Source: Chiloscyllium plagiosum (lineage: Eukaryota). From it: a stretch of DNA of 64,000 bases. A program made the position numbers and the translations under genes. Position 1 is the first letter of the stretch, and each line of letters begins with the position of its first letter. This document shows, in pieces, positions 1-45,724 of the stretch. The stretch is taken from NCBI RefSeq assembly GCF_004010195.1, contig NC_057719.1, positions 10,481,466-10,545,465 on the forward strand, read 5' to 3'. The notes beneath the pieces were generated by a model. The model made no database searches. It was not told where the DNA came from and saw only the letters and a program-made list of their open reading frames with translations.

Positions 1-268
1 CCTCAGACTCAGCACCGCCTTCTTGACCTGTAATCTTCTTCCCGACCTCTCCGCCCTCACCCCCTCTCCGGCCTATCACCCTCACCTTAACCTCCTTCCA
101 CCTATCATATTCCCAACGCCCCTCCCCCAATTCCCTCCTCCCTACCTTTTATCTTAGCCCGCTTGGCACATCCACCTAATTCCTGAAGGGCTTATGCCCA
201 AAACGTCGATTCTCCTGTTCCTTTGATGCTGCTTGGCCTGCTGCGCTTTTCCAGCAACACATTTTTAA
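1..268 (+). mobile_element. Penelope-like element (family 1) 3' terminal region with decayed hammerhead core
   Basis: Pyrimidine-rich tract, then TTCCTGAAGGGCTTATGCCCAAAACGTCGATTCTCCTG...TTTTCCAGCAACAC, the same tail seen at 10155, 38052, 44888, 45265, 61717 and 62425. Confidence 0.7.
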
Positions 269-540
269 ACCCCATATCCCTCCAAATCTTTCCTATTCAT
301 GTCTTTTAAATGTTGCAATTGTACCTGCATCCACCACTTCCTCTGGCAGTTCATTGCACACAGGCACCATTCTCTGTGTAAAAATGTTTCATGCCCTTCA
401 TGACCCCCTCATGTACTTTTGAAATCTTTCTCCTCTCACCTTAAAATTATGTCCATGAGTTCTGAACTTCCCCATCCTCGGGAAAAGACCCTTGTCATTC
501 ATCTTATCTATACCCCTCATGATTTTATAAAAAGATTCAC
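269..540 (-). mobile_element. CR1/HER1-type LINE 3' fragment
   Basis: Reverse complement matches the 3' end of the LINE copies at 4196-4530 and 42287-42730. Confidence 0.75.
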
Positions 541-1744
541 ACAATTGCTACCCTTCTCAAAAGAAAATATTTCTAATAAATTATTTCTAATAAAGAGTGG
601 AATCCAAAATTCCTTAACTTGACTTATCCTATCGACCTACTAAGAACACAAAACCATTAAAAATAGGAACAGGAAGCTTCAACACTGCTCCACACTTCAA
701 TAGGATCATGGCTGATCCGACATTCCTCACGTTCTCTTTAACCTGATACCCCGACTGATCAAGAGTCTATTATCTCAATCTTAAATGTCCACAAGTTCTC
801 TGGCCCCACAGGTCTCCGAGACAAGGAATTTCAAAGACTCAGAATCCTCAGAAGAAATTCCTCCTCATCTTAGTCTTAAATTGGTGCCCCTTAATTCTGA
901 GACCATGTCCTCTCACCATTTATGCAGCATTGTGACATATAACAGTTGATGTTCTAATGCTTTATTTTTCTGATTTCCAGTACTTGTTTTTCGACTTTCA
1001 TCTCGTTCACACCTCTCCACCTCATCCCATTTTACTGTAAATTCTGTGTTGCAATAACCTTGCATTCCAAGATGAACAATCAGGGAAGTAATCGACAGAC
1101 TTCATTATTTATGACTATACAAGACAATCACACTCGTAAGCCCCTCGAGAACATTAAGTATATAATCTACATCAGTCAGCTCCAGACAGAGACTGATCAA
1201 TCAATACTTCCTTGTTTCAAAAATAGAGGGTTGGGAAAAGCATGAATTCCAGTTTAAACATTACTCTGAAACTTCAATTCAAATGTAAAAGTAACATCTA
1301 ATTTAAAAGTTACCAGTAGCTTTATTACATATTCAAGATTTCCCAGTTTCATTCATCATTTCCTTCAGAAATTACTTGCATCTTTTTCTAAGGGAAGGCA
1401 CAGTCATTAATTATTAAAATTGTCCATTTATTGCTAGCCACATGAAGGGTTATTGGATGCATTTCAGATTTGAGAGAAGCAATAAAAAAATCATTTGGAA
1501 GTGCAGGGAGTGTATAGCTCAGAACCTGGCCAATTAGTTCAACAGGTTTACGCTCCACAGAAGACTCCTCCAGCTACAACTACAGCTAACACGAACAAGA
1601 AAAGTTGCCATGAATTCTTTTTCATCTCATGTTTACTAGCTTCCCCCAAAGTACAAACAGTGCATCCGTTCACTATTATATAGGACCCAATAAATTAGGT
1701 TTAAATACAAATATTACAAAATAACATGACAAGAGATTTTGTTC

Positions 1745-2090
1745 ACAGGATGACAGCATCACTGGCTATGTCAATATTTGTTGCCCATCCTCAATTGCTC
1801 AAAGTGCAGTTAAGAGTCAGCCATTTTGCTGCGGGTCTGGAATCAAATGTAGGCCAGACCAGGTAAGGATGGCAGTTTCTTTCCCAAAAGGGCAATAGTG
1901 AACGAGGTGGAATTTTCCCCCCTGACAACTGGCAATGATTCTGTGGTCATCATTAGACTCTTCATCACAGATATTTTTCTAAAATTGCAGACAAATTCCA
2001 CCATCAACCTTGGCAGGATTCAAACCCGGATCCTCAGGAATCTTACTGGGTCTTTGGATTAACTGTCCAGTGATAAGACCACTGCGCCAT
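1745..2090 (-). mobile_element. tRNA-derived SINE (SlmI/MetaSINE-like, tentative family)
   Basis: Reverse complement of the 37052-37390 family: CCTTACCTGGTCTGGCCTACA core and GGATGGGCAA tail. Confidence 0.7.
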
Positions 2091-2860
2091 TTACTGCTTT
2101 GGAAGCCATCCCCACTTCCACGAATCACATGACTAATCTTGCATTTTATTTAGTTAAATTAGTCCACTTAATTTTAACAGCAATATTTCTCTTCAGCTAT
2201 GGAGAAAATCCAAACAACATTACAAAGTGTCAAATAAAGCTTTAAATAAAAACAGCATTTTCTCCACAGAATAAAGCTGGGGAACTCCCTAATTTGTGTG
2301 GCTCAGCTGCTCACACTAAATCACAGGGTTGATCTTTGAGTGAAAAACTATCTATATTTAACAACAAAAAAAATCCCTCCAGAATTCACAAAAAAAAATC
2401 TCAATGATCCTAAATATGTCAAGAACAAAGATTTGGGATATATTTGTTTGCTTGGCACGTTAATGCATTTTTTCCTTCTCAAACTCGTAACAGCTATTGC
2501 ACTAACAACCGAACAACTTGGAACACGTGGTTAATACAGACGGGCAAGGGACTCACAGGTTCACAAGTTGGAACCCATCCTAAAGTTAAAATACTGGTGG
2601 GGCAGGAGGAGGACAAACACATGGTAGGATTGACCAAACCTGCTGTCCCGTGTATATGGAATCAAATACGATGCTGATTTTATATTCCATATTCAGCCCA
2701 CTGACTACAATAACTCAAGCAGGGTGTAAAACCAACATTTGACCAAGCTCCTCATCAGTTTTCAGATAGACTACATCATTCAGATTGCAGTGAAACTGAA
2801 AGCACACATTCTGATGGGTTCATCCGATTTATCGCAATCTGAATGGAATTGCATTTGAAC

Positions 2861-3184
2861 ATGGAAGCAGAAAAAGCATTAATAACACTGAGAAATTGTA
2901 TACGTGTTTTATGAGTGGCAAGGTTTCATCGTATGGAGTCACAAGTGTGGTCACACACAGAGAAGAAATTGTGGAACTGTGGGAAAGGATTCAAATATCT
3001 ATCCGCACTGGAAAAGCATCAGCACAGTCACAGTGGGGAGAAGCCATGGAAATGTACAGACTATGGGAAGCAATTCATTTACCCATCTGAACTGGAGATT
3101 CATTGGCACAGTGACAAGGAGAGAAACTGTTCACCTGCTCCCAAAATAGGAAGGCATTAGCTCACTTAAATAGTCTGCTGATTC

Positions 3185-3190
<6 letters not shown>
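2861..3190 (+). pseudogene. Degenerate C2H2 zinc-finger gene relic
   Basis: ORF 2915-3160 reads HTEKKLWNCGKGFKYLSALEKHQHSHSGEKPWKCTDYGKQFIYPSELEIHW, with HSGEKP linker; frameshifts and lost Cys/His ligands; ATG at 2861. Confidence 0.75.
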
Positions 3191-3217
<27 letters not shown>

Positions 3218-3242
3218 CACACACACACAGAGTGAGAGAGAG
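3184..3242. repeat. (AG)n(AC)n compound microsatellite
   Basis: Directly visible. Confidence 0.9.
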
Positions 3243-3928
3243 GTATCAGAATAGGAAAGATTGAGAGGGATATCGGCCAAATGCAGGCAAATGTAACTAG
3301 TTTAGTTTGAATAACCTGGTCAGCATGAACAAGTTGGACAAAAAGGTCTGTTTCTGTGCTATATGACTATGACTCTGGTTAGCATCCCTCCAACATGATC
3401 CAAATTAGATCATCTTCAATGACTCAGGACATAGATTTAAGGGTAAGGTAAGGGCCAGGAGATTTAGAAGGAATATTTTTCACCTAGAAGGTGGTGGAAC
3501 TCACTGCCTGTAAGGGGACAGTACCTTCATAACATTGAAGAAGTATTTACATGTCACTTGCGATGCCAAGCCATACAAGCTTTTTTTATTTACCCGTGGG
3601 GACATGGGCATCGTTGGCTGGTCAGCATTTATTGCCCGTTCCTAGATACCCTTGAGAAAGTGGTGGTGAGCTGCCTTCTTAAACCATAGTCCATGCCCTT
3701 AGGGAGGGAAATTCCAGGATTTTAACCTAATGACAATGAAGGAATGGTGATATATTTCCTAGTCAGACGGTCAATGACTTGGAGGGGAACTTGCAGGTGG
3801 TGGTCTTCCAATGGTTCATCCACTGCCCTTGTCCTTCCAGATGCAAGTGGTCATTGTTTTGGAAGGTGTGTCTAAGAACCTTTGTTGAATTTCTGCAGTG
3901 CATCTTGTAGGTACTGCTGCTCATGCGA

Positions 3929-4530
3929 AGAGGGTTACCTCAGATTACAACAGGATCTTGACCAGATGGGCCAATGAGCTGAGAAGTGGCAGATGGAGTT
4001 TAATTCAGATAAATGAGAGATGCTGCACTTTGGGAACTCAAATCTTAGCAGGACTTATACACTTAATAGTAAGGTCCTAGGGAGTGTTGCTGAACAAAGA
4101 GATCTTGGCTATAGGGAGAGGCTTAACAGGCTGGGACTGTTTTTCCTCGGAGGCTGAGGGGTGACTTCATAGAGGTTTACAAAATTACGAGGGGAATGGA
4201 TAGGATAAATAGACAAAGTCTTTTCCCTGGGGTTGGGGAGTCCAGAACTAGAGGGCATAGGTTTAGGGTGAGAGGGGCAAGATTTAAAAGAGACCTAAAG
4301 GGTAACTTTTTCACGCAGAGGGTGGTACGTGTATGGAATGAGCTGCCAGAGGAAATGGTGGAGGCTGGCATAATTGCAACATTTAAGAGGCATTTGGATG
4401 GGTGTATGAATAGGAAGGGTTTGGAGGGATAAGGGCCGGGTGCTGGCAGGTGGGACTAAATTGGGTTGGGATATCTGGTCAGTATGGACGGGTGGGACCG
4501 ATGCTGTACATCTCTATGACTATGACTACA
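3929..4530 (+). mobile_element. HER1-type CR1 LINE 3' fragment with internal deletion
   Basis: ESRTRGHRFRVRG...FFTQRVVRVWNELP C-terminus and (CTATGA)n tail. Confidence 0.9.
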
Positions 4531-4574
4531 GGTGCAGGGAATGGATGCCAGTTGAGTAGGCTGCTTTCCCCTGG

Positions 4575-4690
4575 ACTGCAGATGCTGGAGATCAGAGTCT
4601 AGATTAGAGTGGTGCTGGAAAACCACAGCAGACCAGGCAGCATCCGAGAAGCAGGAAAATCGATGTTTTGGGCAAAAGCCCTTCATCGTC
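4575..4690 (-). mobile_element. PLE family-1 mini-element (decayed hammerhead plus tail)
   Basis: Same ~120 nt unit as 10155-10280. Confidence 0.75.
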
Positions 4691-4997
4691 AATCATTCCT
4701 GGATGGCGACAAGCTTTTTAAGTGTTGTTGGAGCTGCACCCATCCAGGCAAGTAGGGAGTTTTCTGTCACACTCCCAACTTGTGCTTTGTACACGCTAGA
4801 CAGACTTTGCAGAGTCAGGAGGGGAGTTACTCACAGCCGTATTCCTAGAGTCTGACTTGCTGTTGTAGCCAGTGTGTTTATGTGGTGTGTCCAGTTGAAT
4901 TTCTGATCCCCAGGATATAGCAAGGGATTCAATGACATCATTGAATGTCAAGGGATGGTAGTTAGATTGTCTCTAATTGGCGATGGTCGTGGCAAGT

Positions 4998-5835
4998 TTT
5001 AAGAAGATTTGTAGTTCAGGTTGAGATTCTGGGTGGAAGTTTGCTCGCTGAGCTGGAAGGTTCATTTTCAGATGTTTCATCACCATACTAGGTAACATCA
5101 TCAGTGAGCCTCCGGTGAAGTACTGGTGTTATGTCCTGTTTTCTATTTATATGTTTAGGTTTCTTTTGGTTGGTGATATCATTTCCTGGTCTCTTTCTCG
5201 GAGGGTAATAGATGGGGTCGAAATCAATGTGTTTGTTGATAGAGTTCTGGTTAGAATGCCTTGCTTCTAGGAATTCTCATGCATGTCTCGGTTTGGCTTG
5301 TCCTAGGATGGAAATATTTGTGTCAGTCAAAATGGTGCCCTTCCTCATCTGTATGTATGAGTGGGTCATGTCTTTTTGTAGCTAGTTGATGTCCATGTAT
5401 CCTGGTGGCTAGCTTTCTGCCTGTTTGTCCAATGTATTGTTTGCTTCAGTTTTCGCAAGGTATTTTGTAGTTGATGTTTGTTTTGTCTGTTGTCTGTATA
5501 GGGTTCATTAGCTGCTGTTTTAGTGTGTTGGTGGGTTTGTGGTCTACCATGATGCCAAGAGGTCTGAGTAGTTTGACAGTCATTTCAGAGATAACTTTGA
5601 GGTAGGGGAGAGTGTTTAGGGTTTCTGGGTGGGTTTTGACTGCTTCTTTGGGTTTGTTGCTGAGAAATTGGCAGGTTGTATTCATTGGGTACCCGTTCTT
5701 TTTGAATACACCATATAGGTGGTTTTCCTCTGCTCTTCGTAGTGCCTCTGTGCAGCAGTGTGTGGTGGCTCATTGGAATGCAGCTTTGTTTATGGGTGTT
5801 GGGATGATTACTTCTATAGTTCAGTATTTGGTCCA
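4998..5835 (-). mobile_element. Penelope-like element (family 2) 3' part: RT thumb, GIY-YIG endonuclease and hammerhead-bearing terminus
   Basis: Minus-strand frames give DQILNYRSNHP, TLPYLKVISE and INYKIPCEN..YIGQTGRKLATRI (GIY-YIG motif); hammerhead core at 5068-5107. Confidence 0.85.
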
Positions 5836-30336: not shown

Positions 30337-31085
30337 TTAGTGTAGTGGCTCAGTGGTTAGCACTGTAGCCTCTCAGCACCTGGGAACCTGGTTCGATCCC
30401 AGACTTGGGTAACTGTCTGCATGAAGTTTGTGTGTGTGTGTGTTCCTCCCACAGTCCAAAGACGTGCAGGCCATGCTAAATTGCCCACATTGGTCAGGGA
30501 TGTGTAGGTTAGGTACATTAGTCAGGGGCAAATGTAGTGTAGCAGGGGAATTGGGATACAGCATGGAAACAGACCCTTCGGTCCAACCCGTCCATGCCGA
30601 CCAGATATCCCAACCCAATCTAGTCCCACCTGCCAGCACCCAGCCCATATCCCTCCGAACCCTTCCTATTCATATACCCATCCAACTGTCTCTTAAATGT
30701 TGCAATTGTACCAGCCTTCCTCTAGCAGCTCATTCTATACACGTACCACCCTCTGCATGAAAAAAATGCCCCGTAGGTCTCTTTTATATCTTTCCCCTCT
30801 CACCCTAAACCTATGCCCTCTAGTTCTGAACTCCCCGACACCAGGGAAAAGACTTTGTCTATTTATCCTATCCATGCCCCTCATAATTTTGTAAACCTGC
30901 ATAGGATCACCCCTCAGCCTCTGACGCTCCAGGGAAAACAGCCCCAGCCTGTTCAGCCTCTCCTTATAGGTCAAATCCTCCAACCCTGGCAACATCCTTG
31001 TAAATCTTTTCTGAACCCTTTCAAGGTTGGTGTGGACTTGCTGCCCCGAAGAGCCTGTTTCCACACTGTAACGATTCTATGATTC
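30337..31085 (+). mobile_element. V-SINE interrupted by an antisense HER1 LINE
   Basis: SINE 30337-30552 resumes at 31026-31085. Confidence 0.8.
30553..31025 (-). mobile_element. HER1-type CR1 3' fragment
   Basis: ORF 30735-31064 ERVQKRFTRMLPGLEDL... Confidence 0.9.
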
Positions 31086-31242
31086 CAAGGTGTATTCTTA
31101 AAAAGAAAACTACCCAATTATTGTCTCTTAACAAAAATCAAATCAAGGTTCTTCTACCTCAAGGTGATGGGCTTTCCAATGCTTGATGCTGCACTCCCTG
31201 CCGCGCCTCGCCATCACTCCTCCACCCCCCCCCACTTCTTAC

Positions 31243-31470
31243 CCGCGGGATCGGGAGCGCGCTACCCGGGCGCTCCAGTCACGCGCCGGGAGCGCGCTCC
31301 GTAGAAAACACAAACACAAGCAGACCACCGGCGGGCCCGAGACAGGCAGCATCGCCCACTCCACTGAGGAAAGAAATGATGCAGCAGACAGAGGTAGGAA
31401 AGCTGCAGACGTGCACCTTTGACAGAAAGCTACCCACTCCCCCACCCACCCCTCGGGGGCACGCTGCATC
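31243..31470 (-). promoter_or_regulatory. CpG-rich candidate alternative non-coding first exon
   Basis: Local CpG cluster 31180-31480 ending in a strong donor CGG|GTAAGA; the 5' end is a guess. Confidence 0.4.
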
Positions 31471-32310
31471 CGAATAGGAAAACACATAGACCAAAACTAA
31501 ACATCCAGGTCCCCTCCACTTGAGAGTTTTTTTGGGGGGGGAGGGGGCGCACCTTTCCTCCCAAGCCCAGAGTTCCTCATTGCCAAACATTCCCATAAAG
31601 TTTTCACTGAACCGTGTCCCGCTGTTCCCAAAAATGTGAAGCAGACGGATTCAACCCGAAAGACCACCGCCTCCCTTCCCCTGACTTCACCCCCCGAATT
31701 CCCCTATTCCCTCTCTGAGATTTGTCGAGAAAGAGCCAGTTCTCTCGGTGGTGGGATACCCGACCGAGGCCGAATGTCAACTTTTGCATATATTTTCCTC
31801 TCTGTACGGGGGGGGAGCTGAAGACACTGGACTGGATCGAAGACAAAATATAGGCATCTACTATGGTCAGACCCTGAATGGCCTGTACACTTAGAGCTGC
31901 CGGAGTGGCTCAGAGACCCATTCTATCCGCCCGATTGTATCACACTTTTACCCGGGCTGAGCTTCTGTGGTGCAATGGTCATGTCGCTACTTCTAAACAA
32001 GGCAGACTGGGTTCAAGTCTCACCTCCTTCACAAAGCATATAATACCATCCCTGAGTTAGCCGATCCGGTAAATATCGACTGCTCACATTTAAGGCTATT
32101 TCGCTGTCCCTCGCCTCCACAGCAAATGGTTTATCTTTTTATATATATACATATATATATATTAAAAACCCATCATTAATGGCAACTCCCTGCAGGCTAT
32201 AATTTTATGTACAGCTTGTGAAATGAATATTAGATCACATCACGGCCTGCCTGACTAGGTATTCTAAGTAATCATGTAGACACCAATATGTTCAAATGCA
32301 CTATTTGAAT

Positions 32311-32410
32311 CTGAAGATGGGTCACTGGACTCGAAACGTTAACCTTGCCTTTTCCCACAGATGCTGCCAGACCTGCTGAGGTTCTCCTGCAATTTCGATT
32401 TTTGGATTTT
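32311..32410 (+). mobile_element. PLE family-4 mini-element starting at a hammerhead core
   Basis: CUGAAGA U GGGUC-ACUG-GACUC GAAACGUU AAC, then CAGATGCTGCCAGACCTGCTGAG tail. Confidence 0.75.
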
Positions 32411-34079
32411 TTCCCCCTCTGCCTGAGAACCGCTCTGCCTCTTTGAAATAAAAAAAAAGTTACGCTTCAACGACTCGACGGTACACTCTTCCCCCTCCCC
32501 AAGAAACAATTTCTGCCATTTCACCAGCTGCGTTGCATTTTTGTTTTTTGTTTTTTGCGAACACTGACATTTAGCGCTCACGAGAAGCCAAGTACAATTA
32601 AATTTCATCTTCTGTGATAGAGATGCAAAATCGACGCTGGGTTGCTGGGGAGGGTGAGATGGTGAATACGCCGTCGACAAAGCTTTTCAATATGGTTAAA
32701 TCCTTGTTTGGGGGGTGGTGTGGGACTCAGTCTACGTGTTATTTTGTTACCCCCCTCCAACCCCTCCTTCCAATCTGATTAAATAATCGGCGTTTGCTAA
32801 ACATTCCGATTTAAAACGGCGAGAGTGAAACCAGATGTGTACAGACAACACACTGGAGAGCGCACACACACTGGGGCGTTCACTTGATAGCCCCAAACAT
32901 ACACAACCATAATTCAAAGGCTATTTCGTTAACTTCAGACATTGTGTATCATCGCTGCCCGCTAACTAACCCTAACGCCTACCCCCAACAGTGGAATTCT
33001 AAAACTTAGTCATCCATAAACCCGGAGTAATTCGCAAAATATGCCCAGCCAATACTTGTTTTAAAAAAAAACAAAAATACTCCCAGACGATGCAATTTAA
33101 TCCTTCTGAACCCCTTCTCCCCTCCCGCACCATTTCCAGTTCAGCTAATATCGGCCCTAAATAAAAGCAGACCAACTTTTCATTAAAGTCTGAGGCAATT
33201 CAGAAATGTATTGTTGCAACAAAAAAAGGGTGTAGTTGTGGTCGAGTGTCCCTCCCTCTCAGCTAGGGGTCTCAGGTTGAAGTGCCACCTGCTCCCGACC
33301 TACGTTGTAACATCTCTGAATAGGGAAAATTGGGGGGGGGGGGGGGGAAGAGAAATGAACACAGAGAGGGGCGAAAGAACACAGGCTCCCAGGGGTGGAG
33401 GTCAGCACATGGCAGTGGGAAAGGGGCGTTTGGAAGAGGGGGTTAACGATTATAGCGGCACATCCCCAGCGGATGGACAGGATCTATCCCGGGAATCTCG
33501 CACTTACCCTCTAACCTCACTTGGAGATCGGTTGGGTGGTTGAGTGAAGCCAAGTGTGGGTTCAACTCTGAACTTCACCGGCTGAAGTTACCATGGAGGA
33601 CTTTCCTACTCAACCTCTCCCCTGCCCTGAGGTTAGCCCTCAGGATTAACCACCGGCAATTGTGTCTTCCACCCCCCAAATAACAGAGAAGCCCTATGGG
33701 CTGGGAAGACTCCTATGTTATTAGGAGGAAGGATTTCTATCATGGAGAAGATCCCGCTGTTTACAAATGAAGACTTAAACGGGCACACACACACAAAACC
33801 AAATATTCCACCTCTGTTTGCAATCCTGGTGCTGTTGCCCGCACTGTTTTGTCTCAGTTTCTGTTTATTATGTCGGCATATTATTCTCTGTCCATCTCCT
33901 ATCTCTCTCTCTCTCTCTCTGGATATGGCTATAAATGCCCACTTTAATCTTTCACTGCGTAAACGTTTCGGTACCTCGTTCAATTTCCAGCTGCAATTTT
34001 TGCAACAATTTCAAAATAAAAGAGCTCAAGCTCCAGGTGTGAATCTCCCGAAAAAACAAAACGCAAACATTTTCCTGCA

Positions 34080-36120
34080 TCGAAATATGAAAAGCGCACG
34101 AGTGTTCGGGGGGTGGGTGGGGGGTTCTGAGAATAAATAGGGGATGGCCGGGAGGGGGAAGGGGGGGATGGTGGCGAAGAACTGATCCAGTTTTAATTCC
34201 CGCACACTTGTATGGCAGAACGCGGAGCAACTTTAAAGCGCGCAGGCAGGAATTTAAAAATAAAACAAATAAAACAAGTCAGAAAGAGCCGGCGACGCAT
34301 CCGCGATAAAGTTGGCTTGACCTCTGTCAATGATCACCAAGGGCGAAACGAGAACACCCCCCCCCCTCCCACACACACTACCACCACCCCTTAACCACGA
34401 CCCCCGGAGGGAAAGTTGATGCAATTTTCGCCCCCACACCATCACGTTTTACTATGGCACGCTGTCGGGTTTTTTTCCCCCCAGACCAGATGATTTGTGT
34501 AACATTTGGCGCGATTGTAAACCAGGTTCGGTCGCCTGGGGGGGGGGGGGGTGCTAACGGCGCCGTGGACTGGGTTCTATCAAGGAGAAAGAAGCTAAAA
34601 CGGATGTGTGTGTGTGAGAGAGAGTGATACAGTCAGACTGACAATCACTGAATTGTTACAGCGTACACTGAGACCATTCGGCCCACACTGACCGCACCGT
34701 TTCTATTCCCTGGTGCCAACCTTCTGCTTTCCTCCCAAATCTAGCATCAAACATCACTATATCTGTAACAAAATAAAACACACAAAAACACGCTGTCTGG
34801 TTTAGCTTCAGCTTTCCAGCATCCACAGCTCTCTGCTCATCCACTGCTTTCTTCCGCTCCCAGCCCTTACTACATCCCATGTATTTTCTTAAAGTCTGAT
34901 CTCATTTGCCGCCTCTTTCTGAATTTCTCCTACACAAGTCCCTCGATTAATCGCGAAAGGCTGAAAGCTCTGCACTTTAAGATAGATCACTTGGCCCCCG
35001 GCAGGTCAACGTAATCGGAGTGTGCGGTCGATATGATGACTGGGATCCACGCCGACCTTACTTTGCAGTGTCACCGGGAGGGGGCTAACGAATATCGTTA
35101 TTGCTTAACACACAGTCCGTCCCCACACTTTCAACAAAACCAACTAAACACAGCAGCAAATCTCTCCCCCTCCACAGGCGCTGGCTGACCTGCTGACAAT
35201 TCCAGGCAATGGTCTTACATTTCAGACTTGAAGCTGCAATCTGTTCATTCTGGGGAGGCAGAAAATGTCACAACTTTCAAGCCAGGGCTGCCCCACATAA
35301 TCAAGTGACTCCAATTGCACCCCACCCACCCCAAAAGGTATTCGATTGTCCACTTCAGTCGCAGGCTAGAATTTAACACTGGTGCCTTATCCCCAGACAA
35401 CACGAGAAAACGCCAGTGCACGAACCGGCTGGTTAAGTGCAAGCAGAAAGAATTTCATTTCATTTCCTCTATCCCAAAATCGTACCTTGCAGGACTTGTC
35501 CCGGACAGACCTTCACTCTCACACGCACACATGCACAGATACACAAGTCAAATCCGATTCCCTCCGTTAAATCCCTTCCGATGGCGAGATCGATTCCGAG
35601 TGGGGTTGAACGGCTGGAGATGTCCCAGTAGCTGTGGGAGATACTGGCAGTTCAGCTACAGAGAGAGAGAGAGTGATGGGAACGAGAGAAGAAAAAAAAC
35701 CCGGCAGCCCTGCGCTCTCTCTCTCTTTCCCTGTGTGTATGTGTGTGTCTGTCTCTCCCTTCCCTTTCTGCTGCAGACTCCTCGCGTCACGATTCCCCCT
35801 CCCCGTCTTTGCCCTGATATTCCGGCTTATGGCAGCCCCTCGTCAAAGCAAGTCACAGTTTGGCATCTGCACACAGCGTCTAAACCCCGCCCTGCACACC
35901 GCCGACAGCACCATTTAAAAAGGAAACGGCCTTTTGCTTTCTGATGCTCTCCAGGCAGAGAGAGAATCTCCCTCCAGCCGGTCATATCAAAGCAGACGGC
36001 GGTGTAGAAATGTGCTGTTTATAATTTAAAAAAAAAAGTAAGTGGGAGGTGTGAGACAATTCGTTCATTTCCTGGGAAAGCTGTACATTTCATTACTGAA
36101 CGCAGCGAACAGTTTGAAAC
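34080..36120 (-). promoter_or_regulatory. CpG-island-like promoter with candidate exon 1 (~35486-35760)
   Basis: CpG retained against a depleted background; GC box CCCCGCCC 35885-35892; CRE half-sites CGTCA at 35785 and 35841; donor AAG|GTACGA at 35486. Confidence 0.5.
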
Positions 36121-36378
36121 GGGGTTCAAAGAATCAAGAGGTGGAATTGAATACTGAATGTTCACTTAGGAAGTTTGAAAGATGAGTTTGCTGGTCCTTC
36201 AGTTGCATCATAGTCGAGCGGTTCCCACAATTCACCTTAAATCCACATTGGATCCAGGGGGACAGAAGAGGAGCAAATCATTAGGCCCAGTCATGTCTGT
36301 TCCACCATTTATGGTTCTATCTCAATGTCATTCTGCTACCCTCCGCACCAATCCCCTCGTAATCCTTGGTTCCTTTAC

Positions 36379-36686
36379 TTAGATTACTTACAGTGTGGAA
36401 ACAGGCCCTACGGCCCAACAAGTCCACACCAACCCTCCGAAGAGCAGCCCACCCAGACCCATTCCCATACATTTACCCCTTCACCGAACACTATGGGCAA
36501 TTTAGCATGGCCAATTCACCTGACCTGCACATCTTTGGACAGTGGGAAGTAACCGGAGCACCCGGAGGAAACCCATGCAGACATGGGTAGAATGTGCAAA
36601 CTCCACAGAGACAGTGGCGGGAATTGAACCCGGGTCTCTGGCACTGTGAGGCAGCAGTGCTAACCACTGTGCCACCGTGCCACCCA
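36379..36686 (-). mobile_element. Young HE1-type V-SINE
   Basis: Near-consensus head GGGTGGCACGGTGGCACAGTGGTTAGC...GGTTCAATTCCC. Confidence 0.92.
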
Positions 36687-37051
36687 AAGTGTTTTCTTAA
36701 AGTCTGATCTCATTTGCCGCCTCTTTCTGAATTTCTCCTACACAAGTCCCTCAATAAATCGCGAAAGACTGCAAGCTCTGCACTTTAAGATAGATCACCG
36801 GAGGGAATCGAAGTGTCCAGAAATCTCTCTCTCTATTAAACATGTTCAGTGACTTGGCCTTCACAGCTATCTGTGGTAGAGAATTCCAAAGTTTCACAAA
36901 AAAATTACCCTCATCTCGGTCCTAACTGCCCTACCTCATATCCTGAGACCACAACCCTCCCCGAGTCCATAGACAGAGGAAGCATCATCCTATATTGAGT
37001 CTTCCACCTCCATCAAAATCTTATACATTTCCATAAGATTCCGTCTCATGA

Positions 37052-37390: not shown

Positions 37391-38051
37391 CAAACCAAAA
37401 AAACCTTGTCAATCTAATCTCCTCTCAATGACAAACCTGTCATCCCAGGAATCAGTCTGGTGCATGCTCAGTGCAATCCCCGTGTAAAGATATGTCCTTT
37501 CTTATGTAAGGTGAAGATAACTGCACATGATATTCCAGGTGTAGTCTCACTAAGGCCCTAATCTGGCTGCATTAATGGATCATTGCTCTTGACACAAATC
37601 CTCTCCCAATGAAAAAACTGCAACATACCAATTGCCTTACTAATTACTTACTGAACAAGGGTGAGGCAGTTTAACTTGGGGACTTTGATTCACAGCTGAT
37701 TTGTGAACTAATTGCATGTGCCGCATATTCCCACTTTTTTTGGTGAACAAAAATCTATCAGTTTGAAAATTAAGTTGAACAACCGATCTTGCATCTACAT
37801 AAACAATTCCAGAAGTCTCAATATGACATGGTTAAGAGCAGGGATGCAAAGCTCATCTGTGTAAAATATGTGCATATACTCAATATATTTGACATTTCAT
37901 ACCCTAACAGGAATGGGTTTCAAACAAATGTCATCCTAACGAAATTTGTAGCATATCAGCCAACAAATTTTATTTATGTAGCCCTTGAACACAATATGAT
38001 TTCCCAATGCACTTCAGAGGGCAAGCCATAGCAAGATATATTAAGCCAACC

Positions 38052-38350
38052 AGATGAAAGTGAGGACTGCAGATGCTGGAGAGTCAGAGTTGAGAGTGTG
38101 GTGCTGGAAAAGCACAAGTCAGGCAGCATCTGACGAGCAGGAGAATCGACTTTTTGGGCAGAAGCCCTTCATCAGAAGGGGGCCGATGCAGAGGGTAACA
38201 GATTGACATTGAGATAGAACAATGCCAACTGACGGAACAGACATTACTTGGGCCTAATGATCTACTCCTCTTCTGTCCCCCTGGATCCAATGTGGATTTA
38301 AGGTGAGTGCATTGGATTGTGGGAACGGTTCAACAATGATGTGACTTCGT
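38052..38350 (-). mobile_element. Chimeric insertion: PLE family-1 mini-element plus captured local sequence
   Basis: 15-bp TSD TATATTAAGCCAACC (38037-38051 / 38351-38365). Confidence 0.8.
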
Positions 38351-39162
38351 TATATTAAGCCAACCCTGAGGAAAGAGAGAGATCTTAAGGAGCATATTAA
38401 AGAAGATGAGAGAGAAATTTTGAGAGAGAACTTCAGAGCCGAGTCCTCGACAGTGGAGTGATGCTAAGTGAAATCACAGAAAGCACCAGCCTTGGGAGAA
38501 CAGAGAAATCACAGAGGATATTGAAGTGGAGGAGTAAATGGACTGAGGTCATGGATGAATTTGAAAACAGAGCTGAGAGTTTTAAATTCAATGCTTTTCC
38601 AGATTGTCACAGGTTACAAGAGTGATAACTGTTTGGGACTTGGACCACTGTAGAATATGGGAAACAAAGTTTTGTGTACACTTAAGTTTACAGGAGGTGG
38701 AAGGCTGGCCAGGTGAACGTTAGAATCATTGAGTCCATACGTTACAAAGTCATGGCTAACAGGATTCCAATAGCAGATGGACTGAGGAAGAAATCAAATT
38801 GAGGTAACATTACAGAAGTATTATCTGGGTTGTGGAGATAATGAGATGGGAACTTTTATTTATGGTCAAGGTTCGAGGTTAAGGACTGTCTGGTTCAACC
38901 TCAGGGTGTGGCTATGGAGAGGGATGGAGTTAGTTACTATGAAATGGAACTTGTCTTTTGATACACCTATCCTGACTGGATTCTATCAGTCTCAAATTTA
39001 AAAGTTGCAATCATTCCAGCCTTCAGAGACATTTTGGAAGCAGGATACATTAACTTTCTATTTAAATTTAATTGGTTGGTGATGAACAAATCAGAAAGAG
39101 GGAAATGAAAGTTGCAGAACCAATGATTGTCCATATGAATGATACTTGGACACTTTTATCTA

Positions 39163-44556: not shown

Positions 44557-45264
44557 AAAACCTTGCATTCAGATAGTGCCTTTTGCAAACCCAGGGCCTC
44601 CTAATGCATTTTATAGTCAATTCGTCCTTTTGAAATGTAGTCGCTATTGTAAGGTGGGAACCCAATTCGCAAATTTACTCACAGTGAAACGTCACAAACA
44701 ACTATGTGATATTGACAACATAATCTATTTCTATCATCCCCGGCCAATATTTCCGTCTCAGTCAACACCACCAAAATAGATACAGAATCAGAAATTTCTG
44801 GAAAAACTCAGTGCGTCTGGCTAATCTAGTTCTGAAGCAGGATTAGTGGACCCAATCACTACATCTGATCTATAATTAGCATTCTTATTCCAGATGAAGG
44901 GCTTATGCCCAAAACGTCAACTCTCCTGCTCCGAGGATGCTGTCTGACATACTGTGCTTTTCCTGATTGCAGGCATATATCTCTGATTACAGGTATATAT
45001 CTCTATAGTTATCGTTGAAATTATAACTTTTCGACTATAATTAGCAATGTCCTATTGACCAGACAATCCATTTCAGTAACAAAAAAGAACAAAGAAATAC
45101 GGATGCTGGCAATCAGAATCGACACCTATGGAGTGAAAGGAGAGTTGATGTTTTGGATCCATTCTTCAGAAGTAGATAGCCAGACCTGCTGCGTTTTTCC
45201 AGCAATTTCTGATTTTGAATCTATTCCAGTGATGTTGACTAAGCAAATTATTGGCCAGGGTCCT

Positions 45265-45362
45265 GATTCTCCTGCTTCAAGGATGCTGCCTGACCTGCTG
45301 CGCTTTTCCAGCAATACATTTTTCAGCTCTGATCTCCAGCATCTGCAGTCCACATTTTCTCC
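45265..45362 (+). mobile_element. PLE family-1 tail abutting the satellite start
   Basis: GATTCTCCTGCT...CTCTGATCTCCAGCATCTGCAGTCC. Confidence 0.75.
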
Positions 45363-45724
45363 TACTGGTATGTATCTCTGATTACAGGTGTGTTTCTGAT
45401 TACAGGCGTGTTTCTGATTACAGATATGCATCTCTCTCTACATCTATGTATCTCTGACTACAGGTGAGTGTCTTTGATTTCAGGTATGCATTTCTGATCA
45501 GAGATATCTAACGCTGATTACAGGTATGTATCCCTGATCACAGGTATGTATCTCTGATTACAGGTATGTAACTCTGATTACACATATGTGTCGCTGATTG
45601 AAGGTATGCCTCTCACATGACAGGTATGCATCTCTGATTAAAGGTATGTATCTCTGAATACAGGTATGTAACTCTGACTACAGGTATGTATAGCTGATTA
45701 CAGATATGTATCTCTGACAGCATG

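Follow-up and report, generated by a model that had tools for sequence, protein, structure and literature searches.

Repair-mediated duplications, as described by Pace, Sen, Batzer and Feschotte in 2009, derive from a single-copy donor within 5 kb with a peak near 1.2 kb, have a mean length of 162 bp, carry microhomology and filler at their ends and are also reported from zebrafish and chicken (PMC2671141). For templated insertions associated with L1, the templates typically lie within 15 bp (10.1101/2024.08.27.596794), and a 6271-bp resection with self-annealing of the cDNA has been inferred for L1 as well (PMC11702581). In the snap-back described for R2, the 3′ end of the cDNA primes further synthesis before the 5′ junction forms, with the cDNA itself or target DNA close by as template (PMC11371274). 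Endonuclease-bearing Penelope-like elements, in turn, are characterized by an inverted pLTR, a 30–40-nt tail, a minimal hammerhead and self-priming palindromes (PMC4209133, PMC11167929, PMC8557442, PMC3846280), and an uncleaved RNA template has been reported in vitro for an anole element (PMC11167929). Short non-coding hammerhead units related to pLTRs and arranged in tandem arrays have been described as non-LTR retrozymes (10.64898/2026.07.22.740005).

Here we describe an insertion at positions 38037–38365 of the window (the whole 64,000-nt stretch of Chiloscyllium plagiosum DNA that was analysed), in which one target-site duplication (TSD) is shared by a unit of a Penelope-like family and by DNA copied, in inverted orientation, from 1.8 kb upstream. 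The features are as follows:

38037..38051, plus strand: left TSD, whose 3′ end would be the primer for reverse transcription
38052..38176, minus strand (RNA sense): Penelope-like terminal-repeat unit, bounded by the long reverse-transcription start and the 5′ edge of the hammerhead; profile positions 4–131 of 138, 112/119 identical to the family majority
38148..38175, minus strand: minimal hammerhead core, with CUGAUGA at 38175–38169 and stem II at 38167–38156 (motif descriptor from PMC4209133)
38165..38180, plus strand: 6-bp hairpin CCCTTC-ATCA-GAAGGG across the junction, its AGGG end doubling as the first bases of the patch
38177..38346, plus strand: patch of 170 nt, an inverted copy of the donor according to alignment and genome searches
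38347..38350, plus strand: filler of 4 nt, matching neither the donor nor the upstream target
38351..38365, plus strand: right TSD, joined to patch and flank in contigs of a related species (organism B)
36201..36357, plus strand: donor, with this strand as the template should the copying have started from the cDNA end; on the right it consists of a decayed old repeat, which extends to 36379, past the copied portion
36681..36810, plus strand: another patch, independent of the first and located at the 5′ end of a SINE; 118 nt are copied from 34873–34990 in direct orientation (110/118 identical), followed by a 12-nt tail that matches 35555–35566 inverted

The 15-bp TSD (TATATTAAGCCAACC) is present in two identical copies at 38037–38051 and 38351–38365 and encloses a single unit, as the first-pass annotation had proposed. 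Self-alignment agrees with its description of a family-1 unit joined to an inverted copy of 36201–36357: 137 of the 157 aligned bases of patch and donor are identical, with three gaps of 3, 1 and 9 nt. A long identical run is present, although it measures 42 nt (38265–38306, corresponding to 36232–36273) and not the 41 nt given before; runs of at least 41 nt arise in 1.3% of 20,000 shuffles of the patch/donor differences (P 0.013, post hoc). The unit has nine other matches in the window (77–85% identity). The patch is unique to the two sites, as had been predicted: a DNA search of the whole genome (3.56 Gb), which skips common words, returned two places, and so did a 24-nt patch pattern with up to 2 mismatches (control 0). 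In about 1.86 Mb around and including the window, the region used to build a 138-position profile of the unit, the patch has one match and no further copy. Although 36261–36379 is a decayed old repeat, the patch matches nothing else in this region, and the concern raised beforehand, that the segment is a common repeat with closer copies elsewhere, is ruled out by its restriction to two genomic places. A mobile composite is ruled out as well, the unit plus patch piece occurring at two places only.

The direction of copying can be read from the old repeat, whose profile matches the donor at 36261–36379 and thus past the copied edge at 36357, where the patch stops short. As only the 36.2-kb site has the old repeat running on past the copied stretch, this site is the donor and the copy was made from 36.2 to 38.2 kb. 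The filled site is also carried by organism B, which is represented by two studies and is about 3.6% diverged (23–25 differences in 649 letters and 16–17 in 477). In each run, one contig covers 38146–38794 and bridges both the unit-to-patch junction, with 31 letters on the unit side, and the patch-to-flank junction; the left junction is overlapped by only 25 letters (our rule demands 31) and no contig spans the whole insertion. With both of the bridged junctions inside single contigs from two studies, an assembly artefact is ruled out. No empty site was seen in organism B, the one relative examined. A second contig per run, which we read as the donor of organism B, aligns to 38176–38346 with a single gap letter and 25–27 differences; the gaps of 9 and 3 nt would therefore be later deletions in the donor of the window's species. 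Judged by divergence, the insertion event would be roughly 3.5 times older than the split from organism B. The unit differs by 5.9% from the family majority and patch and donor by 6.4% per branch, and this agreement in age is consistent with one event. The copy is real, old, one-off and dead and has not spread. The earlier proposal, that a single insertion took place and that a local template was copied at the unit's hammerhead end, is supported.

The profile finds 487 matches in the 1.86 Mb, 287 of which end at position 130 or later of 138. A TSD score of at least 11 was reached by 80 of 227 candidate copies in comparison to 1 of 120 random pairings, and these 80 TSD-bounded copies comprise 47 plain fold-backs, 16 copies without extra sequence and 17 with other extra sequence. 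Family TSDs are 11–18 bp long with a mode of 14–15 (63 copies); the TSD at 38037–38365 is therefore of typical length, which supports one event. First arms start at profile positions 2–5 in 75 of the 80 copies and inverted second arms at 29–47 in 42 of 48, an offset that corresponds to the one-sided 30–40-nt tail described for Penelope-like elements (PMC11167929, PMC8557442). Both halves of the hammerhead core are in register in 53 of 126 near-full copies, 50 of these 53 with stem II. Three features by which Penelope-like elements are recognized, namely the inverted second arm with a one-sided tail, the minimal hammerhead and the TSD, are present in the family. Besides, long copies run on into a frame that ends in the unit and contains a YIGET motif; GIY-YIG clusters, 24% of whose members carry PF01541, are among its Atlas feature matches at 0.94, Pfam searches on frames of long copies found no domain in 5 of 5, and no long intact family copy was recovered in 1.86 Mb. 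Tail, hammerhead core and TSDs together identify 38052–38176, on sequence criteria, as the terminal piece of a Penelope-like element. The earlier term “mini-element” is better read as a 5′-truncated terminal piece, as the unit elsewhere continues into a putative endonuclease-coding body.

Judged by eye, the insertion at 38037–38365 is the only one of the 80 TSD-bounded copies that has single-copy extra sequence from a distance; one copy has an adjacent 186-bp direct duplication and one is ambiguous. At L153:6986–7558, a fold-back copy is flanked by a 186-bp direct duplication (98%) that resembles a very long TSD. A truncated unit at window positions 44738–45364 is accompanied by a TSD-like pair of 20 bp, located 269 nt beyond it, and matches 44738–44837 in inverted orientation at 80%; minisatellite and older repeats are intermixed here, which makes this region ambiguous. 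In a second hammerhead family (L092:9389 to L093:163 and L160:3948–4241), we observed the order flank, short unit, inverted flank copy and long unit, with inverted copies of 288 and 40 nt and the long unit on the same strand, a layout that would fit a hairpin-capped end opened off-centre.

The junction of unit and patch is located at the usual end of the family. The predicted hammerhead cut falls between 38148 and 38147, 29 nt away from the junction at 38176/38177, which rules out a junction set by cleavage. Moreover, CUGAUGA and stem II are retained at the junction and could not have come from a cleaved template. As the part removed by cleavage is kept at the junction, the template RNA would have been uncleaved. 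In the present-day copy, GAAA/stem III is decayed at 38155 and 38151 and the 5′ strand of stem I is replaced by the patch; an Rfam scan at the gathering threshold gave 0 hammerhead matches, and folding of 38125–38200 on the minus strand gave no ribozyme fold (z −0.79). According to the first-pass annotation, the reverse transcriptase switched template at the ribozyme onto local nucleic acid. The local template and the position at the hammerhead end of the unit are supported, but a special role of the ribozyme as catalyst is not, given the distance from the cut and similar patches at a ribozyme-free SINE and at LINEs.

The hairpin across the junction is, from its sequence, likely an aborted fold-back. 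Its AGGG stub end equals the donor edge at 36354–36357, and this 4-nt microhomology exists on the cDNA side only. At this one junction, stub and one-sided microhomology favour a priming from the cDNA side after a short fold-back. The choice of the donor, in contrast, is not explained by the microhomology, since there are 28 candidate sites for a 4-nt match in the 3 kb upstream. The same product would arise if the far (minus-strand) end had entered the donor duplex, been extended along it and afterwards paired with the fold-back stub via AGGG, and both ends may prime in Penelope-like elements (PMC11167929) and in synthesis of the SDSA type (PMC2671141). However, no microhomology links the far end to the donor edge at 36201, where only the 4-nt filler is found, and we regard this course as highly improbable. 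A genome search for the hairpin junction with a different next base yielded 21 other loci, which were sorted by eye: eight continue as a full fold-back from the hairpin, four restart the second arm after the stub, two jump to the far end of the unit, six enter unrelated sequence with no donor within 1.5 kb (two of them identical) and one is atypical. As these loci were picked by the junction motif, they show recurrence and not frequency. At L185, the same hairpin junction is followed by about 35 unrelated bases and a second arm, all inside a 14-bp TSD.

A self-comparison of 1.865 Mb revealed 67 local low-copy duplications. Three of them touch hammerhead ends, where 2.9 are expected, so that there is no enrichment at these ends; the rates of local low-copy matches are 8/439 for hammerhead ends, 4/263 for start ends and 18/1500 for random places. 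Keeping only those with a gap of 100–5000 and an identity of at least 78% left 26 of the 67 and dropped 41. These 26 patches in 1.86 Mb have a mean length of 168 nt and a median gap of 1371, and 10 are inverted and 16 direct. Repeat edges are touched by 14 of them versus 3.1 expected (0 of 300 permutations), a count that is inflated where later insertions break alignments; 12 have no repeat edge, and three lie between two repeat pieces. Patches away from element edges or between repeat pieces need no reverse transcriptase. The local duplications also include patches at LINE ends and between LINE pieces. Examples, located either at an edge of LINE-like repeats or between their pieces, are L093:7921–7970 (donor L093:4358–4409), L006:4154–4222 (donor L006:2653–2721) and L121:2060–2409; these patches lie 0.8–3.5 kb from the matching copy.

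The second patch in the window, 1.4 kb away, serves as an internal control. The SINE at 36379–36688, which we take to be tRNA-derived, and its patch interrupt the old repeat between profile positions 131 and 136, and the patch is unique to two genomic places. With its inverted tail, it appears to join pieces of both strands, which supports a DNA template. No TSD was seen around SINE and patch (window 36379–36818). The pair can be regarded as a ribozyme-free twin of the 38037–38365 insertion. Local patches are thus general here and not special to the Penelope-like element, and in size, distance, occurrence in both orientations and occurrence without an element junction they match proximal repair-mediated duplications.

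The existence of stand-alone patches and of patches inside old repeats, together with the common simple TSD-bounded copies (16 of 80), raises the question whether the unit inserted first as such a plain copy and an unrelated break at the junction was repaired with the patch later. We consider this very unlikely: the patch fills precisely the space that separates the unit's usual end from an intact 15-bp TSD, the ages of unit and patch agree, and patches touch repeat edges more often than expected, even if this count is inflated. Arithmetic from 26 patches in 1.80 Mb of non-N sequence gives an expectation of about 0.01 later patches within 10 nt of the junction in 80 copies.

Our favoured explanation, which we hold to be probable, is that the released cDNA folded back, jumped by microhomology to nearby DNA and, after copying 170 nt there, was end-joined. 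A staggered cut with an offset of 15 nt would provide the plus-strand end at 38051 as the primer for reverse transcription on the uncleaved element RNA, which would proceed for 125 nt to the usual stop of the family. The freed cDNA end would then fold back on CCCTTC and be extended by about 5 nt, the beginning of the common fold-back of the family. Subsequently, the AGGG end could anneal to CCCT at 36354–36357 on exposed plus-strand DNA, presented either by a resected primer-side end or by a displacement loop, and copy 170 nt, the candidate copying enzymes being that of the element itself and a polymerase of the host, for example Pol theta. Released again, the end would gain 4 filler bases and be joined to the far end with its intact overhang, giving rise to the TSD. 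An inverted copy from the primer side is the expected product of a snap-back onto the resected primer strand. DNA-templated copying, which the first-pass annotation had listed as its alternative, fits better than RNA. On the other side, a plus-strand DNA template and a plus-strand RNA would look alike in sequence, and both patches at the locus also fit divergent transcription from the CpG-rich region. By analogy, L1 templates, typically within 15 bp and not 1.8 kb, would argue against a DNA template, and the TSD, being intact, implies that the far end was protected, whereas resection would have affected the near end.

The CpG-rich region, at window positions 34000–36000, is CpG-island-like, as is a further stretch at 31000–33000. 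Words resembling splice donors were spotted by eye near 35486 and 35063 (minus strand) and near 36038 (plus strand). The sole clear host-gene domain is a C2H2 zinc-finger frame on the plus strand at window 2915–3157. In one poly(A) single-cell RNA run, of which about 2% was read and which is too thin to speak for or against a transcript, matches fell on the repeat unit only and none on the patch at 82% likeness. A nascent plus-strand transcript through 36.2–36.4 kb, onto which the reverse transcriptase of the element would have switched, leaving either its RNA or the fold-back stub, would fit the orientation of the copy if it started in the CpG-rich region, with 34–36 kb being one of seven island-like regions in 1.86 Mb, and on the other side the left-hand donor of the SINE patch would fit a transcript of the minus strand. 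Chimeras of LINE-1 with RNA and template jumps of R2 have been described, and three of the 26 patches lie within 500 bp of an island compared to 0.82 expected (20 of 300 permutations reach 3). Nevertheless, 23 of the 26 are not near an island, a Pfam search of 110 + 138 + 145 frames found no neighbouring gene and gave no strand, the junction passes through a DNA-type hairpin, and the 12-nt tail of the SINE patch needs the opposite strand (about 1% by chance, an estimate). Therefore, such an RNA jump appears unlikely to us. In a variant that we rate as quite unlikely, closure of the 5′ junction would be primed by the hammerhead sequence in the form of a DNA hairpin, after which the element's enzyme would jump onto nascent RNA; if true, both patches would be fossil traces of germline transcription in both directions from one promoter, and such traces could be read across the genome.

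To our knowledge, the mechanism by which the 5′ junction of Penelope-like elements is closed is not established. A single fossil matters little in itself, and no function is suggested. However, such junctions record individual steps, namely the usual stop, the hairpin stub, the jump and the filler, and the stub is one detail worth tracking across many copies. Shark genomes hold many such copies, so that strand and side of the template can be counted against gene orientation and DNA and RNA templates be distinguished. In the titles and abstract openings of the literature searched, no kilobase-distant patch in a Penelope-like insertion came up.

Taken together, the insertion matches published repair-mediated duplications and templated junctions of L1 and R2, and is a known type of genome scar. 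With repair-mediated duplications it shares the single donor closer than 5 kb, a length within 50–619 bp, microhomology, filler and the lack of poly(A); those described lie inside older elements, whereas the patch described here is located at the element's 5′ junction, within the same TSD (PMC2671141). L1 templated insertions resemble it in a non-element template of less than 250 bp, in the duplication of nearby DNA and in the proposed SDSA-like transfer of the cDNA (10.1101/2024.08.27.596794), but they are reported for human somatic L1 and with templates typically within 15 bp instead of 1.8 kb. The R2 snap-back, in contrast, was described for an engineered R2 at rDNA (PMC11371274). Non-LTR retrozymes are arranged in tandem units, whereas a single unit is found here. 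In line with Penelope-like elements as described, the unit runs from the reverse-transcription start to the hammerhead, its RNA template would be uncleaved and host DNA is captured at pLTRs; unlike in these elements, only a 5-nt stub is left of the second arm, whose place is taken by a local patch, and the host captures reported in the sources cited lie between pLTRs or as spacers.
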